Positions 39,048 to 57,338 of a stretch of DNA of 64,000 nt are shown here, piece after piece (the stretch's first letter is position 1; every line of letters starts with the position of its first letter). A program made the translations under genes and the position numbers. The notes under the pieces were generated by a model. It was not told the DNA's origin and ran no database searches. It was given only the letters and a program-made list of their open reading frames with translations. Source of the DNA: Escherichia coli (GTDB lineage: Bacteria; Pseudomonadota; Gammaproteobacteria; Enterobacterales; Enterobacteriaceae); NCBI RefSeq assembly GCF_003334405.1, contig NZ_QOWM01000008.1; one strand, 5' to 3'.

Positions 39048-39144
39048 ATAAAAAAATAGAGTCTGTCGACATCCGCCAGACTCTACAGTACACACAGCAG
39101 TGCATCCGCGTCTTAAATCCGGCATTGTCTCCTCTGCGCCGGTG
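39048..39144 (-). ncRNA. mcaS: small regulatory RNA McaS (IsrA)
   Basis: Minus-strand transcript would read ACCGGCGCAGAGGAGACAAUGCCGGAUUUAAGACGCGGAUG...GAGUCUGGCGGAUGUCGACAGACUCUAUUUUUUU: several GGA motifs, terminal hairpin and U-run; abgR-smrA intergenic location matches known mcaS locus; ends approximate. Confidence 0.6.
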
Positions 39145-42520: not shown

Positions 42521-42642
42521 GCAGGTGAATGCAACGTCAAGCGATGGGCGTTGCGCTCCATATTGTCTTACTTCCTTTTTTGAATTACTGCATAGCACAA
42601 TTGATTCGTACGACGCCGACTTTGATGAGTCGGCTTTTTTTT
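42521..42642 (+). ncRNA. fnrS: FNR-activated small RNA FnrS
   Basis: Recognised sequence GCAGGUGAAUGCAACGUCAAGCGAUGGGCG...; ends in hairpin gacgccgac-tttgatgagt-cggc plus U8; zntB-dbpA intergenic. Confidence 0.7.
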
Positions 42643-44404: not shown

Positions 44405-45340
44405 TTATTTCACTTCAACCACATTCAGCCGTAACTCATCCAACTGATTTTCATCTTCTTCTGGCTGCCAGCACGCCGGTTGTAGTGGGATCTCTTCGCG
44501 ATCAAACGCCAGATCACCCCCGTTAACCACTTCAGAACCGTGGGTGATGCCTTTGAAATCGAACAGGTTGGTATCGCACAGATGCGACGGCACCACATTC
44601 TGCATCGCGCTGAACATCGTCTCGATACGCCCTGGATAACGTTTATCCCAGTCACGCAACATGTCAGCAATCACCTGACGTTGCAGGTTAGGCTGTGAAC
44701 CGCACAGGTTGCACGGAATAATCGGGAACGCTTTTGCATCGGCAAATCGCTGAATATCTTTCTCGCGGCAGTAGGCCAGCGGACGAATAACGATATGTTT
44801 GCCATCATCGCTCATCAGTTTCGGAGGCATACCTTTCATCTTACCGCCGTAGAACATATTTAAGAACAACGTTTGCAGGATATCGTCACGATGGTGACCC
44901 AACGCGATCTTCGTCGCCCCCAGTTCCGTTGCGGTACGATAAAGGATACCGCGACGAAGGCGAGAACACAGTGAGCAAGTGGTTTTGCCCTCTGGAATCT
45001 TCTCTTTCACGATACCGTAAGTATTCTCTTCAACAATCTTGTACTCAACGCCCAGCTTTTCAAGATACTCGGGCAGAACGTGTTCCGGGAAGCCCGGTTG
45101 CTTTTGATCGAGGTTAACAGCCACCAGCGAAAAATTGATTGGCGCGCTTTGCTGCAAATTGCGCAGAATCTCCAGCATGGTATAGCTGTCTTTACCCCCG
45201 GAGAGGCAAACCATGATGCGATCGCCTTCTTCAATCATATTGAAGTCAGCAATGGCTTCGCCCACGTTACGACGCAGACGTTTTTGTAATTTGTTCAGAT
45301 TGTATATCTCTTTCTTCGTATTCTTTTGATTTTCTTGCAT
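44405..45340 (-). CDS. ttcA: tRNA-cytidine(32) 2-sulfurtransferase
   Basis: 311-aa ORF with PP-loop SGGKDS and CxxC motifs; known Rac integration target. Confidence 0.9.
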
Positions 45341-45391
45341 TATTTCAGTTCTCTGGTACTAAATGGGGCAAATTGGGGGCAAACTTTGCAA

Positions 45392-46627
45392 CTACGATAA
45401 CCGCGCATTCAACATAGCTACCTGTTCGTCGTTCATGTCATCAATCCACATACCGTAAATTTCATACACCATCTGCGCAGTTTCATGCCCCATCTGGCTG
45501 GCTATAAATGCCGGGTTCGCTCCTGCCGTCAACAGCCAGCAGGCAAAAGTATGTCGCGTATGGTACGGATTACGGCGGCGAATACCAGCACGTTTTACTG
45601 CTGCATTCCATCTCGCACCCAAACTGCTTACCGAGTAATAAGGTTTCTGTTTTCCGTTACACATCCTGGGCATGAAAACAAAATGCAGTTTTTGCTTTTC
45701 GGTTCTGCCGTACTCCCGATGATAAAAAGTGATTTCGCTTTTGCGATGATGCCCGGTCAGTTTGTATTGCTCCTTCAGTGCTTCAAGAGCTGGCTGTAGT
45801 AATGTTACCGTCCGGATCCCGGCATTTGTTTTTGGGGGACCGAACATATCAAGTATCGTCAGGTTTCTTCTGACATTCACAATTCCCTTCTCGAAATCCA
45901 CATCCTCCCACGCCAGAGCAGCCAGTTCCCCGTGACGAAGCCCGGAGTAAACGGCAAATTTCCACAAGTTCTGGCTCTGTCCTTTTTCACTTTCCATTAA
46001 TGCATTGAATTCTGTTTTAGATAACGGATCAGGCTTTATTCTGTTTCGCTGTAATTTTTTTACTCCTTCAAATGGTTTGGTTGATATAAATCCCGACTGA
46101 TACGCAAAACGTAACAACGAACAGAGCAGGGCGATATAGTTATCAACTGTGCGCACGGTTCTTCCTTTTTTGTTGGATCTTGGATTATCCAGGTAAAGCG
46201 TTTCTCCATGCAGCAGTTCATTCCGGTAGTTTAAGATATCGCTATAACGAATATGTGATATAGATGTACTCTCACAAATTATTATCCTGAGTGTTTTTAA
46301 TTGTGATTTCGTTTTCTTCATTGTGTTTGTTGTTAACTCTGTCTCTTTAATTTTTGTCCAGATATCACAAAGCTCCCCGAACGTTTTTATGACCCTCGTT
46401 GTCACCATTTTTGCCCCAGTGCTGGACTGGGGAAAACGTCTTAAATACTCAAATTCACCGGAGTTGATTTCATGAACTATCAACGCTCTTAAATTCCCGG
46501 CATTTTTAATGTTACTGTTAGTAACCTCCCAGCCTTTCAATGTTTCCCGACATCGTTTTCCTCGAAACATGAACCAGATGCGAATGTATTTACCTCGAAT
46601 CTCGACACCTGTTGGTAATTTAGACAT
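45392..46627 (-). CDS. intR: Rac prophage tyrosine integrase
   Basis: 411-aa ORF MSKLPTGVEIRGKYIRIWF... with C-terminal R..HxxR..Y catalytic region. Confidence 0.9.
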   Translation of the reverse strand: MSKLPTGVEIRGKYIRIWFMFRGKRCRETLKGWEVTNSNIKNAGNLRALIVHEINSGEFEYLRRFPQSSTGAKMVTTRVIKTFGELCDIWTKIKETELTTNTMKKTKSQLKTLRIIICESTSISHIRYSDILNYRNELLHGETLYLDNPRSNKKGRTVRTVDNYIALLCSLLRFAYQSGFISTKPFEGVKKLQRNRIKPDPLSKTEFNALMESEKGQSQNLWKFAVYSGLRHGELAALAWEDVDFEKGIVNVRRNLTILDMFGPPKTNAGIRTVTLLQPALEALKEQYKLTGHHRKSEITFYHREYGRTEKQKLHFVFMPRMCNGKQKPYYSVSSLGARWNAAVKRAGIRRRNPYHTRHTFACWLLTAGANPAFIASQMGHETAQMVYEIYGMWIDDMNDEQVAMLNARLS

Positions 46628-46628
46628 A

Positions 46629-46844
46629 TCATGAGTCTTTGATAAACTGATTTATCTTTGGATAGTTGTACCAGATAATCCCTCGCTTACTGTCTGGCTT
46701 CCCTAAAGGAGATACTCGTTTGAAGTGGAAGCCTTCCACCCAACAGTTCTGGCGGTATGCTTCAATTTGTCTGGCCCCCAGACCAGTGCGAAGCATCAGG
46801 CCGTATTCAACCATCCACTCTTCATTAAAGATTACTTGTGCCAT
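46629..46844 (-). CDS. xisR: prophage excisionase
   Basis: ORF 46629-46868; start taken at [10 protein letters not shown] (71 aa); lies directly upstream of intR; also called ydaQ. Confidence 0.8.
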
Positions 46845-46943
46845 CGCATCACCTCTGGCAGGCGCCAATGTTAGACTGAAATTGACGCCCGATGTTGATT
46901 ATTAATAATCAGCTATGAAGTTTTAATTTGAATACAATGCAAT

Positions 46944-47144
46944 TCACGACGACTGAAGTTTCTCGCAATTAAAATTTATCAGTTTTACTTTCTGCTCTCT
47001 GGAACCGCCTGCTTCTTTTTTACCTGAGAGCATTTTTTCGCATTCTGATTTGGTTAATTTTGTTTTTGAGTACCTTGTCCAGTTAGTAGGAGTGCCACCT
47101 TCCTTTTCAATAGTGGCGGTAATTTTATACATGAACACCTCCAT
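46944..47144 (-). CDS. ydaC: Rac prophage small protein YdaC-like
   Basis: ORF 46944-47204; start uncertain (M at codon 21 or 25). Confidence 0.5.
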   Translation of the reverse strand: MEVFMYKITATIEKEGGTPTNWTRYSKTKLTKSECEKMLSGKKEAGGSREQKVKLINFNCEKLQSS

Positions 47145-47319
47145 TATTATTTCCAGTGGTTCGTTTATTCCATCGTTCGAGTGCTTCTTTTTCACTTCCA
47201 CCATAGCCGGTTCGGGATTCGCATCCGTTACACTTCGCGCGGTAATATCCTGAAATGGCTTTTACCGTTACTGATAGACAACCACAAAAAGGGCATGGTT
47301 TGACTTTTTCATACCGCAT
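47125..47319 (-). CDS. ralR: restriction-alleviation protein Lar/RalR (toxin of RalR/RalA type I TA)
   Basis: ORF 47125-47334; start taken at MRYEKVKPCPFCG (64 aa); CxxC...CxxC zinc-ribbon. Confidence 0.75.
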   Translation of the reverse strand: MRYEKVKPCPFCGCLSVTVKAISGYYRAKCNGCESRTGYGGSEKEALERWNKRTTGNNNGGVHV

Positions 47320-47382
47320 TGTCTTTTCTCTCATAAAATAAAATTTTGTGATGGCGGTGAGGCTACACCGCCAAAGTCAATA

Positions 47383-48435
47383 TCAGGAGCCGATATATTC
47401 TGGTTTCATATCTGTCAGTGTCGTTTTATACGCCTCATATAATTCACCCAGATGTGGCCGGGCAGCATTCAGCGTATTTTCCAGAGCAGTAAATTTTTGT
47501 TCTGCTTCTGGATCACTTGAAGAAGGTAGGTCATTTATCATCTTCTCGATACGGGCAATAGCATTGAGACGGTGATGACGCTGAACCACTTTTCCTTTAA
47601 GTTCCGTATAGAGAGCGCCAAGTGTATTTTTATGATCTTCCACTTCCTGGCGAAGTGCTGTTGTTTCCCCGGTGCTTTGTGCCTGCTCAATACGTTCACG
47701 GAAAGCATCGATCCAGTTTTCCCCGGCATCCTGCTCAATAATTGTTGTTTCACGTTCAGCGCGGCAAGCGGAAGTGTTTTTATGTTCCTGAACCGGATTA
47801 ATGATTTTTTCCTGTGGCTCGTCCAGTTCGTCCCTGGTGTACACTCCAAGAATCACTTCGGGGCAATAAAGGCGCGCCCAGCGTTTCAGCGCCAGATAGG
47901 CAAGCTGCTGGCGAGGATCGTCGGCCCATAGCGTTGAGTTACGTGTTCTGGCCTGCGCCAGAAGTAATTCCAGTACGCGTGGTTTACTTTCGCCGCGTAG
48001 TGTTGCCTGGACACGAACACCGATCCCGTTTTCATCGGCCAGCTTCCAGCCAGGTACACGATATTCTTTCCCTTTGTCGCTCTTCCTGATTTCAAATTTC
48101 CCGATAATTTTTTCCCACGGCCCGAACCAGTCATATTCAATACGCCCGGTTAGCGGCCCACGAGTACTGATTACGGCATTAACCAGTTGCGCTTCATATC
48201 CGAGCACACCATTCACAACGAAAGTTTTCTGAGCTACTGCGTAAGGGTTCATTTGCCACTGCATCGCCTGCATGGTGATGGCCATGCAGTCTGATGGATT
48301 TCCCCGGAGGTGTTCCGGTACAGTAGCCATGCCGGAAGCCATTACCTGGGAAAATGTCTGAATTGCAGCCAGGGACTGAGGGCTGAAAACCGCAACATTA
48401 GAGTTAATATTTTCTTGTTGAGTTAATTCGTTCAT
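47383..48435 (-). CDS. RecT-family single-strand annealing protein (divergent from K-12 RecT)
   Basis: 350-aa ORF immediately downstream of the recE-like gene; C-terminal region resembles RecT core (LWADDPRQQLAYLALKRWARLY); identity to K-12 RecT not evident. Confidence 0.6.
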   Translation of the reverse strand: MNELTQQENINSNVAVFSPQSLAAIQTFSQVMASGMATVPEHLRGNPSDCMAITMQAMQWQMNPYAVAQKTFVVNGVLGYEAQLVNAVISTRGPLTGRIEYDWFGPWEKIIGKFEIRKSDKGKEYRVPGWKLADENGIGVRVQATLRGESKPRVLELLLAQARTRNSTLWADDPRQQLAYLALKRWARLYCPEVILGVYTRDELDEPQEKIINPVQEHKNTSACRAERETTIIEQDAGENWIDAFRERIEQAQSTGETTALRQEVEDHKNTLGALYTELKGKVVQRHHRLNAIARIEKMINDLPSSSDPEAEQKFTALENTLNAARPHLGELYEAYKTTLTDMKPEYIGS

Positions 48436-48446
48436 TGTGTCCTTCC

Positions 48447-51400
48447 TCAGATGCTCAGTGCTTCAAGACGACGAAGATCAAAGTCGTTTAATTCGTCGGT
48501 ATAACTTTCGGTAATCGGTGCTGGCCAGTTGTTTGTCTCCAGGGCTTCGTTTATCTGGCGTAGCGTCCGGCGATATTCCTGTCGACCAAGTTCCAGGAGT
48601 TCCTGCGAGGCTTCCACGACTGCCACCCAGTGATAGCCAGCATCTTTGTTGACGAAGATCCAGAAAAATTTGTCCAGGTTTGCCACATCGCAATACATTG
48701 CGGCGCTGAGATGATAATCACGTTCAATAATTTCACGGTGCAGGCGATCTTTAAGTCGTTCCTGTCGCACATAACCGAGGCTGACTGACTTCACGTCAGC
48801 GCAAATGCTTTCGTATGGCAGCCGGATTTCGATATCAGGACGGACCCTGATTTCCAGCCCGGTTTCTTCATCAAACCCGAAATAGCTGATTTCAGATTTG
48901 CGATCCGGGTGGTTGAGTAACCTTGCTGCATCGGTATTGTTTTGTAGTGCCGCGTGAATATTTTTTGCCTGTTCATACATATCCGGACTGATAAACGTTT
49001 TCCCGGCGTTTTCTTCTTGCTGGCGTTTTTGCCAGTCCTCCAGAGTCACCAGTTCCGGGCGAATTTGCCGTGCGATTTCGGTTAATTGCTCTTTTGTGCC
49101 ACTGATGTTGTAAGGCAAAGATTTAGCACGTTCTTTTTTTGCTAGTTCTGGGGCTACAGTTTCAATTTGATCCAGAAGCTGCTCCCGTGCTCCACTGGTT
49201 TTCAACAGAGGAGGGAGGCTTGCGTTGTATTCTTTAATACAGGCTTTCATTGCTGATGCTGTGTGTTTTTCCCCCTCAGGAATACGCCGAAATTCCACCG
49301 GAAGCGAACCGTAAAGGATGCCTGTTTCTTCGGCCCCGGCACTTACAGACAGTGGCTGTATAAGAGTGCTGTTGTAGCTTTCGATCCACTCTTTCATCTG
49401 CTCTGGTGTCATCAGTGCTGGCAGACTGGCATTGTGTTTTTTAATGATGGCGATCAGTTCGTTAGAAGTAGTAACCACATATTCAGGAACCGGTACCGGA
49501 ATGGCATATTCATCAGCGAATTTATCCGTTTCCAGAACATAGCTGTGAATGATCCGCCCACGCAGCAGTGCATCACTTTCCTCGTTCGGAATAGTTCCGG
49601 CAATGTGCCGTCCATGGTAATACATCAGGCTGATACGGGCATCCTTCAGCATCGTGCTGCTTATTCCGTTGGCGGAGTGATAAACCTCGTTCGGGAGGTT
49701 TTCATAGCGGCCAGGCTCGAAATATGACGGCCACATGATTTCAGTTGCTACAGGAGCTGACGCTTCACCAGTTTCATCACTGCAATCACGATGCGGATCG
49801 CTGCCAGCATTCTCATTGTGCGGATGTTCAGCGCCTTCCATTTCCTCCGGATCATTTTCCTTAGCTTCAACCTGACTCTCTTCATCGAATGTTTCCTGGT
49901 ATGTTGCGTCGCCCATCACCGCACCACAGTCAGGGCAGTTATCCCCGCCAGTCTGGCCGCAGGCATTGCAGGCTATTTCCGGTTCCTGTTGCACTACTGG
50001 CTCAGGTTGATTCATATCCGGGCTGGTTTTTTCCGTTTCTGGCTGGTTCTGGTACACACAATCGCGAGTCTGGATCCCCTTTACCCATTTCGGATCGTCT
50101 GGGTCGCTAATTCCGTCAACAAATTCACCACGTGATGCAGCAAGCAATTTATCGGCATCGACAGGATTTTTTGATGGAATGTTTTTCCGGGCTTCATGGA
50201 GTTCTGCCCGCAGTTCCTGATATTTCGCATCAACAGAATTTACCTGTGACTGAGCATCCAGCGGCTGCGTGTCCTGATGATGTTCAGTTGCGTCCGGTTC
50301 CATTGTTTCAGCCTCTCCCTGTTCAACTGCCGTTGTTCCAGATGGTTGCGGTTTTTCTTCATCATCCTGTTTTCCTTCTTCTGTTACTCGCTGCGGCATC
50401 GGGGCAGAGGAGCGACCGCAGGCAATATCCACGATTTCCGGATCAGGGTTGGCATGATCGGTTTCAGTCAGTACTTTGTTCAGATATTCAGTGACGTGCG
50501 CGGGGATGACCTCGATCCCAATTGGTGCTTCTTTTACGGACGCAACCACGATGGCGCGGGAATAATCCAGCCCGCCAGGCATGGTGATGAATTTGTCGCG
50601 GAAAACAGAAAAGGGCGGTTTATTTTCAGCGATAATTTCCTCAATGCGTTTAGCGTGTGCCGGATGAAGGTTATAGATGTCCAGATCCATTGAACGGGCC
50701 AGTACGCCAGTGGCTACGTCGCGCGCCAGTGACGTCAGATCGTGTACGAAACCTTCGCCGCGATCGGTGAGGTTTCCGCCGCCAGCATTAGCACCGGAAG
50801 CCGTGCGAGTGATGTGTGAAACACGATTACCCTTCATCCACTCTTTTGTCAGCAGTCCTCGATCGGTGTAGTCAGCGTTCAGGTATGCTTCGAAAAAAGC
50901 AGTTATCAGTCCCAGGTTTGAATTACCAGGATTAGGGAAAACTTTGTCAGTGTCACGAACCAGTTTGTGGAGTTCGCGAATTTCCAGCGGGTCGAGCAGG
51001 CTGGTTTTGTGGGAAACAGCCAGGGCAGTAACAGCCGGTAGTTCTTCAGCCCGAGCAATGTGTAATGCCTGGAGTCCGTCGCGTGAAACGTGCGTTACCG
51101 GTTTTTCGCTGCCGTGTTGAGCAAGCCAACGAATGGGCAGTTCCTGGCCAGAAATTGGGAGTAGCATATTCTCCTCAATCTCAGTCATGTCTTCGCCGTT
51201 GACGTTGGTATTGCCTTGATAGTGAGCGTTGTCTGGTGCTGCTCCCGGTTTTAGTTCCCATGTCATGGAGTCTTTGCTGAGTTGATAGCGTTCACTCCAG
51301 GTAAAATCGATCTCACCTTCAGCGGGCAGGTCATTAACGACAGGAAAATTCGTGGCAACAGCTTTAAAATAGCTGCTCAGTTTTTTACCTGACTTAACGA

Positions 51401-56971: not shown

Positions 56972-57338
56972 GAAAAGTCCTTTTGAACATATAGGAATAT
57001 ATTAGAGCATGAATGTGTGCAATGCATAAAAGAAAAAGCTACCGCAAGGCGACTCCACCCACAGATAGCTCTTAATTGATTGTTTGTAAAAAATAATACA
57101 TTAATTATCTTCTGTGTAAAGAGGGAAACAGCCTTAGGGTAAGGGACACGAGTTGGGGGGATTGGTGAAATTTGCGTTGAGGATAAAACGATTTGCGGGA
57201 AAAGGATAGTTAAGTAGAATTGCTGCGGGTGCTTGAGGCTGTCTGCCTCGGGCATGAACACCAAAGGCAGATAGAGAAAAGCCCCAGTTAACATTACGCG
57301 TCCGGCAAGACGCTTAACATTAATCTGAGGCCACATCT

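Follow-up and report, generated by a model that had tools for sequence, protein, structure and literature searches.

The window analysed here, a 64-kb stretch of E. coli DNA whose own numbering is used throughout, carries the gene of a RalR (Lar) toxin in the interval 46944-47380. The question raised by this locus is where the RNA that controls RalR in K-12, RalA, is encoded, and which gene it opposes. In the sequence-only reading, RalA had been expected to overlap this region as an antisense RNA and its ends had been left undefined.

The interval very probably represents the already known RalR/RalA type I toxin-antitoxin module of a Rac-type prophage, inserted at the ttcA site of the E. coli chromosome. 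Type I systems combine a toxin that is a protein with an RNA antitoxin that pairs with the toxin mRNA; at the level of sequence both partners and their complementarity were recognized, and their function is extrapolated from K-12.

Setting of the interval and placement of ralA

The interval comprises exactly ydaC/rcbA, ralR and the spacer before a recT-like gene, and sits within a run of leftward (− strand) genes. The genes in question are:

45392-46627, − strand: integrase (ORF list)
46629-46844, − strand: excisionase (ORF list)
46944-47132, − strand: ydaC/rcbA (DUF1187), 62-codon ORF encoding 62 aa plus stop (PF06688 2.4e-37, NF007283, phrog_5753)
46948-47126, + strand: ralA, 179-nt RalA sRNA, the predicted type I antitoxin (Rfam RF02694, K-12 alignment)
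47125-47319, − strand: ralR, 64-codon ORF encoding 64 aa plus stop (ORF, translation, HMM matches)
47383-48435, − strand: RecT-family gene, 350 aa
48447-51518, − strand: recE-like gene, 1023 aa

The same allele is carried by E. coli strain L73 (100% identical copy) and strain ST2747 (99.9% match). In L73 it lies between ttcA and the remaining Rac-type prophage, where Rac is also inserted in K-12, in the order ttcA-intR-xisR-DUF1187-ralR-recT-recE-...-kilR-sieB.

To place ralA, positions 45000-49000 were scanned with all Rfam families at a permissive threshold. One match was returned, RF02694 at 46948-47126 (+), with 212.5 bits (gathering score 170), an E value of 1.4e-51 and complete coverage of the model (1-179 of 179). 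The match is unique in the whole 64-kb window and is far beyond chance. The sequence-only reading had proposed aligning the known RalA to the region and had let its case depend on a RalA-like sequence being there; one is present, and the alignment to the annotated K-12 ralA (b4714) was gap-free and identical at 171 of 179 positions. The layout of b4714, b1347 and b1348 in K-12 is that of the window, with ralA inside rcbA/ydaC on the opposite strand. Within the 48 nt upstream of the RalA start, a single base differs from K-12, at −2.

RalA is fully antisense to codons 3-62 of ydaC/rcbA and lies immediately 3′ of ralR, convergent with it; the two genes share 2 nt within the ralR stop codon, as in K-12. 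The expectation that RalA would be found in this region therefore held, in that its gene lies inside the interval at the counterpart of its K-12 coordinates. The expected orientation did not: RalA is not antisense to ralR, with which it has only the 2-nt stop-codon overlap in common, but to the downstream ydaC/rcbA. Because the NCBI pipeline leaves ralA unannotated in the 100%-identical L73, the gene is easily overlooked.

The RalR/RalA module was found in 1922 of 5426 complete E. coli genomes, about a third. For comparison of alleles, 83 related loci were assembled, which gave 49 distinct alleles of the region at 88-100% identity. A genome scan at species level with RalR returned only two real loci; such single-protein patterns reach close relatives only. 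A further "RalR" at 78% identity in L089 (Logan ERR3578271) was dropped as a bisulfite-like artefact, with G→A changes throughout and 22% GC. This contig from a public assembly is presumably bisulfite-treated E. coli DNA, and it gives a spurious divergent "RalR" and "DUF1187" in the protein database.

The toxin gene and its upstream region

The translation of ralR (MRYEKVKPCPFCGCLSVTVKAISGYYRAKCNGCESRTGYGGSEKEALERWNKRTTGNNNGGVHV) was identical to K-12 RalR at 61 of 64 residues, the substitutions being D4E, N5K and P15L. It scored 158.6 bits with NCBIfam NF007260 (RalR equivalog, cut-off 113) and also matched TIGR03655 (Lar family) and Pfam PF14354 (Lar_restr_allev, 2.5e-13), with weak matches to zinc-ribbon Pfam families. 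The four cysteines of the zinc-ribbon-type motif (C9, C12, C30, C33) are all present, as is K52, the residue whose K52Q change inactivates K-12 RalR (PMC4041452). The earlier assignment of 47125-47319 as a zinc-ribbon, Lar-family DNase toxin gene is borne out by the cysteines and by the NF007260 and PF14354 matches; the DNase activity and toxicity of the product are predicted from its likeness to K-12 RalR. PGAP gives ralR identical coordinates in L73.

Among 25 alleles, ralR had a pN/pS of 0.09. Its variable sites numbered 10, 4 and 24 at codon positions 1, 2 and 3, and its synonymous divergence was 0.14. P15L (codon 15, 47275-47277), next to the first Cys-x-x-Cys knuckle, was seen in 1 of 49 distinct alleles. 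A second in-frame ATG occurs five codons 5′ of the ralR start (47320-47334, − strand; MREKT-MRYEK), and K-12 has a counterpart four codons upstream (MRKI-MRYDN).

ralR lies in a long operon, and a consensus scan of the − strand over the 5 kb preceding it found no sigma-70-like promoter. The RecT-family neighbour of ralR (350 aa) had no BLASTP similarity to K-12 RecT (E 0.37), and the recE-like ORF encodes 1023 aa vs 866 aa in K-12 (lengths compared only). The ralR-ydaC-xisR-intR cassette is thus joined to a different recombinase gene than in K-12, and matches running across the junction between cassette and recombinase were found in only 144 of 1930 genomes. The spacer at this junction contains:

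47352-47373, − strand: hairpin in the recT-ralR spacer, 8-bp GC-rich stem, 5′ of ralR on the mRNA strand (fold)

Two spacer types that otherwise diverge both keep the stem arms (UGGCGGUG...CACCGCCA), with unlike loops, and the hairpin marks the point where similarity to K-12 stops. An uncertain part of the system, it may represent a mosaic junction, a terminator of partial effect or a structure at the 5′ end of the mRNA.

Promoter, fold and terminator of RalA

The features of the RNA gene outside the pairing element are:

46933-46938, + strand: candidate −10 box of ralA, TACAAT, 9 nt upstream of the start G46948 (read from the sequence)
46949-46986, + strand: RalA 5′ stem-loop, RalA 2-39 (Rfam consensus structure, fold)
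47093-47126, + strand: RalA terminator of the intrinsic (Rho-independent) type, with a 6-bp GC-rich stem UGCCAC/GUGGCG, a 14-nt loop and then GUAAUUUU

The start at G46948 follows from K-12, where mapping placed the RalA 5′ end at a G that precedes a 16-nt repeat by 62 nt (PMC4041452, Guo et al. 2014). TACAAT at 46933-46938 is the probable −10 of ralA, and the box reads TACAAT or TATAAT in 48 of 49 alleles. Neither reading of the sequence nor a consensus promoter scan gave a convincing −35 for ralA. The candidate returned by the consensus scan, TTGACG-16-AATAAT at 46882-46909, is unlikely to be the ralA promoter: its −35 is not conserved, and its distance upstream of the mapped start is about 38 nt too long.

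The terminator sequence is that of K-12 and fits the published description, in which a 14-nt loop on a short GC-rich stem is followed by four U's to give a 179-nt RNA (PMC4041452). The consensus terminator scan returned nothing for RalA because the 14-nt loop exceeds the limit of the scan. With a fold of −7.8 kcal/mol, the terminator is not thermodynamically distinctive; nor is the 5′ stem-loop, which is weak (−3.9 kcal/mol, z −0.2) and still forms with the G3-U38 pair of K-12 replaced by a C-U mismatch. The minimum free energy of the whole RNA was no more stable than that of shuffled sequence (z +0.2).

When the Rfam structure was laid over 30 distinct RalA alleles, 95% of cells were paired and nearly all pairs were invariant; one pair had a change on both sides. 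The helix 97-101/112-116 (helix 5) is broken in most alleles, including that of the window, with 78% of its cells paired. These data lend the published RalA fold no thermodynamic and no clear covariation support.

Predicted pairing of RalA with ralR

The predicted pairing involves two segments:

47010-47025, + strand: pairing element, RalA 63-78, UGCUUCUUUUUUACCU (K-12 identity); the first 11 nt form the contiguous core
47182-47197, − strand: RalA target in ralR mRNA, CDS nt 123-138, AAGUGAAAAAGAAGCA (codons S-E-K-E-A)

Between these segments there are 14 Watson-Crick pairs, one G-U pair and one mismatch, with 11 pairs contiguous, and the best ungapped 16-mer of RalA against the ralR mRNA likewise had 15 pairs, 14 of them Watson-Crick. 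Element and target are both identical to K-12, and the element begins 62 nt after the transcription start, as mapped there (PMC4041452). As the element is a low-complexity U-run facing an A-run, composition-matched shuffles also produced an 11-nt complementary run, in 1.75% of cases. Whole-molecule RNAduplex energies for RalA against ralR were set aside, as they described meaningless full-length duplexes no better than those of shuffles, and were replaced by contiguous and ungapped complementarity.

In 46 of 49 alleles neither the 11-nt core nor its target varied. In one divergent allele T63A in RalA is accompanied by the matching A138T in ralR, whereas another has T63A alone; the compensated change is suggestive, weak evidence for pairing. 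A75C, present in about 40% of alleles, shortens the pairing to the core.

In K-12, protection is weakened when the repeat carries point mutations and returns when ralR is mutated to match (PMC4041452). RalA has been seen there by primer extension and qRT-PCR (PMC4041452) and was found by RNA-seq in all 8 K-12 conditions (PMC12266141). Hfq is required, and RalR protein drops while ralR mRNA does not (PMC4041452); among type I systems, Hfq dependence has been reported for ralR/ralA alone, which also showed no site of RNase III cleavage (PMC6212723).

By analogy with these experiments, RalA of the window would be made from its own promoter, with TACAAT at 46933-46938 as the probable −10, and would be transcribed convergently towards ralR from inside and opposite ydaC/rcbA. 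Hfq would bind and stabilize it, as in K-12 (Guo et al. 2014), and through its 16-nt element it would act in trans on the ralR mRNA, so that the non-specific DNase is held in check. The same DNA also encodes a real protein, YdaC/RcbA (DUF1187), on the other strand.

The protein gene opposite RalA

ydaC was called non-coding in the 2014 RalA paper (PMC4041452). Citing Felczak & Kaguni 2012, that paper notes that the earlier work which named rcbA had not settled whether its product is RNA or protein (PMC4041452). In the window the ydaC start codon overlaps the ralR end (ATGTATAA), and the ydaC ORF was intact in 49 of 49 alleles. Variable sites at codon positions 1, 2 and 3 numbered 11, 6 and 26. 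Pooled pN/pS was 0.09 in the ydaC frame, equal to that of ralR; four other frames gave 1.9-2.6, and the antisense frame whose third positions coincide with those of ydaC gave 0.30. These patterns argue that ydaC/rcbA is a bona fide protein-coding gene sharing its DNA with RalA.

Conservation within the family points the same way. The Salmonella enterica YdaC orthologue is a 63% identical protein (pS 0.72, saturated; pN 0.22), and an exhaustive HMMER search gave 82 cluster representatives of DUF1187, many full-length at 40-60% identity, in which W18 is invariant and Y2, I4, K10, G12, C31, F54 and C56 are nearly so. An apparent confinement of DUF1187 to E. coli and Shigella, obtained with a word-index protein search, was discarded as an index artefact, the search having missed the 63% Salmonella orthologue and the breadth of the 82 HMMER representatives. 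The AlphaFold model of YdaC is a β-β-α-β fold (pLDDT 79.7) with two conserved cysteines; Foldseek comparison with the PDB gave no significant match; the top-ranked entry, the UDG inhibitor p56 of a phage, reached E 0.59 and is no more than a lead. The YdaC of the window is 62 aa vs 69 aa in K-12 and carries V43G (codon 43, 47004-47006), found in 1 of 49 distinct alleles.

RalA substitutions track the codon periodicity of ydaC. No RalA-specific constraint was detectable, because synonymous sites diverge no less in ydaC (0.16) than in ralR (0.14). Most of the sequence conservation of RalA is accounted for by coding constraint on YdaC/RcbA.

Absence and loss of the pairing element

The Rac-like locus of Salmonella enterica (L088, 2501-2898) has the order recE-recT-ralR-DUF1187-xis-int. 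Its ralR (61 aa) and DUF1187 gene (64 aa) are set apart by a 17-nt spacer with no overlap, and an extra 138-aa ORF follows. The antisense strand of this DUF1187 gene scored 29.7 bits on the RalA model, and nothing resembling the seed-target pairing was found in the locus.

Within E. coli, one allele carries a 12-nt deletion (RalA nt about 59-70), by which 8 of the 11 core seed bases are lost and ydaC stays in frame. The loci with this deletion are:

L066, 1694-1860, − strand: seed-deletion locus
L086 and L087, about 1477-1643, + strand: seed-deletion loci

At least 12 complete E. coli genomes, which come from several hosts, contain the deletion junction at 100% identity; strains with the deletion include KCJ3K291 (NZ_CP054407.1) and CEC15 (NZ_CP133657.1). 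Two of the genomes were inspected, and both have an annotated, intact ralR with the nucleotide sequence of the K-12 allele whose toxicity was shown by experiment. Because seed-deleted genomes keep an intact ralR (two inspected), the pairing element appears not to be indispensable at native expression. An addiction-like module would require an antitoxin that cannot be lost, and 8 of the 11 core seed bases are missing from at least 12 genomes, a point that concerns physiology and not the identity of the locus. On sequence comparison, then, the pairing of RalA with ralR appears to be clade-specific and naturally dispensable. Its dispensability fits a ralR that lies in a long operon with no σ70-like promoter detected within 5 kb upstream.

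Alternative explanations

RalA might act mainly as a cis-antisense regulator of ydaC/rcbA, to which its 16-nt pairing with ralR would be secondary; it could keep ydaC from being translated or change how stable a ralR-ydaC co-transcript is. The geometry suits such a role, with RalA wholly inside ydaC on the opposite strand and perfectly complementary to codons 3-62, from 4 nt after the start codon, of a gene that is genuine, coding and under selection. The overlap of the ralR end with the ydaC start (ATGTATAA) suggests co-transcription and coupling, and the seed has been lost in nature with ralR intact and ydaC in frame. We nevertheless consider this unlikely, since K-12 RalA supplied in trans neutralized a plasmid carrying ralR alone, compensatory mutations restored protection (PMC4041452), and K-12 ralR/ralA, being without detected RNase III cleavage, gives no sign of an extended duplex (PMC6212723). 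The Rfam match might instead be a mere reverse-complement shadow of the ydaC CDS, with ralR silent in a repressed early-left operon so that this strain needs no functional antitoxin RNA. All detectable constraint on the RalA region is indeed codon-periodic, neither clear structural covariation nor a thermodynamic signal accompanies it, seed-deletion lineages exist in which ralR was intact in the two checked, and no sigma-70-like − strand promoter was detected in the 5 kb upstream of ralR. RalA has, however, been detected as an RNA in K-12 (PMC4041452; RNA-seq, PMC12266141). From 48 nt upstream through most of RalA the window is identical to K-12 except at base −2, the −10 box is conserved, and one allele combines changes in seed and target that compensate each other. 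A shadow of ydaC is therefore very improbable.

The YdaC/RcbA protein might itself counteract RalR, instead of or besides the RNA. RcbA was named for reducing chromosome double-strand breaks, according to the passage in which Guo et al. cite Felczak & Kaguni 2012 (PMC4041452), and its gene sits, probably translationally coupled, behind that of a DNase. The protein is under purifying selection, and in the Salmonella locus, which lacks the RNA seed pairing, it is conserved beside ralR. Yet in K-12 neither a stop at ydaC codon 9 nor mutation of the start codon abolished protection (PMC4041452), distant DUF1187 genes occur with no Lar/RalR neighbour, and the protein has no significant structural similarity to known antitoxins; we give this explanation the least credence of those considered. 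None of these points changes the identity of the locus, which we continue to read as the RalR/RalA module. It is conceivable, although doubtful, that RcbA predates the pairing of RalA with ralR and that RalA is primarily a cis-antisense RNA of rcbA, whose short low-complexity match to ralR was gained in the E. coli Rac clade, because the protein is conserved in Salmonella and the pairing is not, and because the element is dispensable in E. coli lineages that keep the toxin.

Comparison with known systems

The closest relative of the module is RalR/RalA of K-12 Rac (ralR b1348, ralA b4714), which shares the site (ttcA-intR), the gene order, the strands and the 2-nt overlap. RalA is 95.5% identical between the two, with no difference in seed, target, promoter-proximal region or terminator. 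The differences are eight substitutions in RalA (a predicted internal helix is disrupted by two of them), D4E, N5K and P15L in RalR, V43G and the shorter YdaC (62 vs 69 aa), and the non-similar RecT-family gene.

TisB, ShoB and ZorO are toxins of another kind, namely small membrane peptides. In comparison with TisB/IstR-1, ShoB/OhsC and ZorO/OrzO, RalR would be a soluble zinc-ribbon DNase and RalA would pair inside the CDS, at nt 123-138. What these systems have in common with RalR/RalA is an sRNA with short pairing (10-25 nt), encoded beside and not opposite the toxin ORF (PMC4041452). RalR is by sequence a member of the Lar family, the Lar/Ral restriction-alleviation proteins of lambdoid phages (PF14354, TIGR03655, phrog_599). 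K-12 RalR, however, showed DNase toxicity and no restriction alleviation, and lambda Ral is only 24% identical to it (Guo et al., PMC4041452).

A second type I toxin-antitoxin locus was seen in the same prophage region, with an Rfam sok match at 57227-57402 (+; 105 bits) and beside it a Hok-like ORF of 51 aa at 57397-57552 (+; MKQQKAMLITLIVICLTVIVTVLVTRKDLCEVRIRTDQTEVAVFTAYELGE). Sok is a true cis-antisense RNA and Hok a membrane toxin. The hok/sok system stands as another type I system of the same window, and RNase III cleavage has been detected for it (PMC6212723). Other Rfam sRNA matches at the gathering threshold were McaS at 39048-39143 (−), FnrS at 42521-42638 (+) and STnc100 at 60191-60377 (+); McaS and FnrS lie outside the prophage, on the chromosomal side.

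Implications

RalR/RalA was already known; what is added here is evidence that ydaC/rcbA encodes a protein and that the pairing of RalA with ralR is apparently clade-specific and dispensable. The annotation of the interval is completed by placing ralA to the base, at 46948-47126 (+). A single stretch of DNA is put to two uses, one strand encoding an sRNA and the opposite one a small protein that is conserved, and a deletion or mutation described as one of "ralA" or of "rcbA" hits both genes. The textbook view, in which ydaC is not a gene and RalA exists to check RalR, may be incomplete. This bears on how firmly RalR/RalA is to be counted as a canonical type I toxin-antitoxin system: were RalA primarily the cis-antisense RNA of rcbA, RalR/RalA would not be an addiction-type module at native expression.
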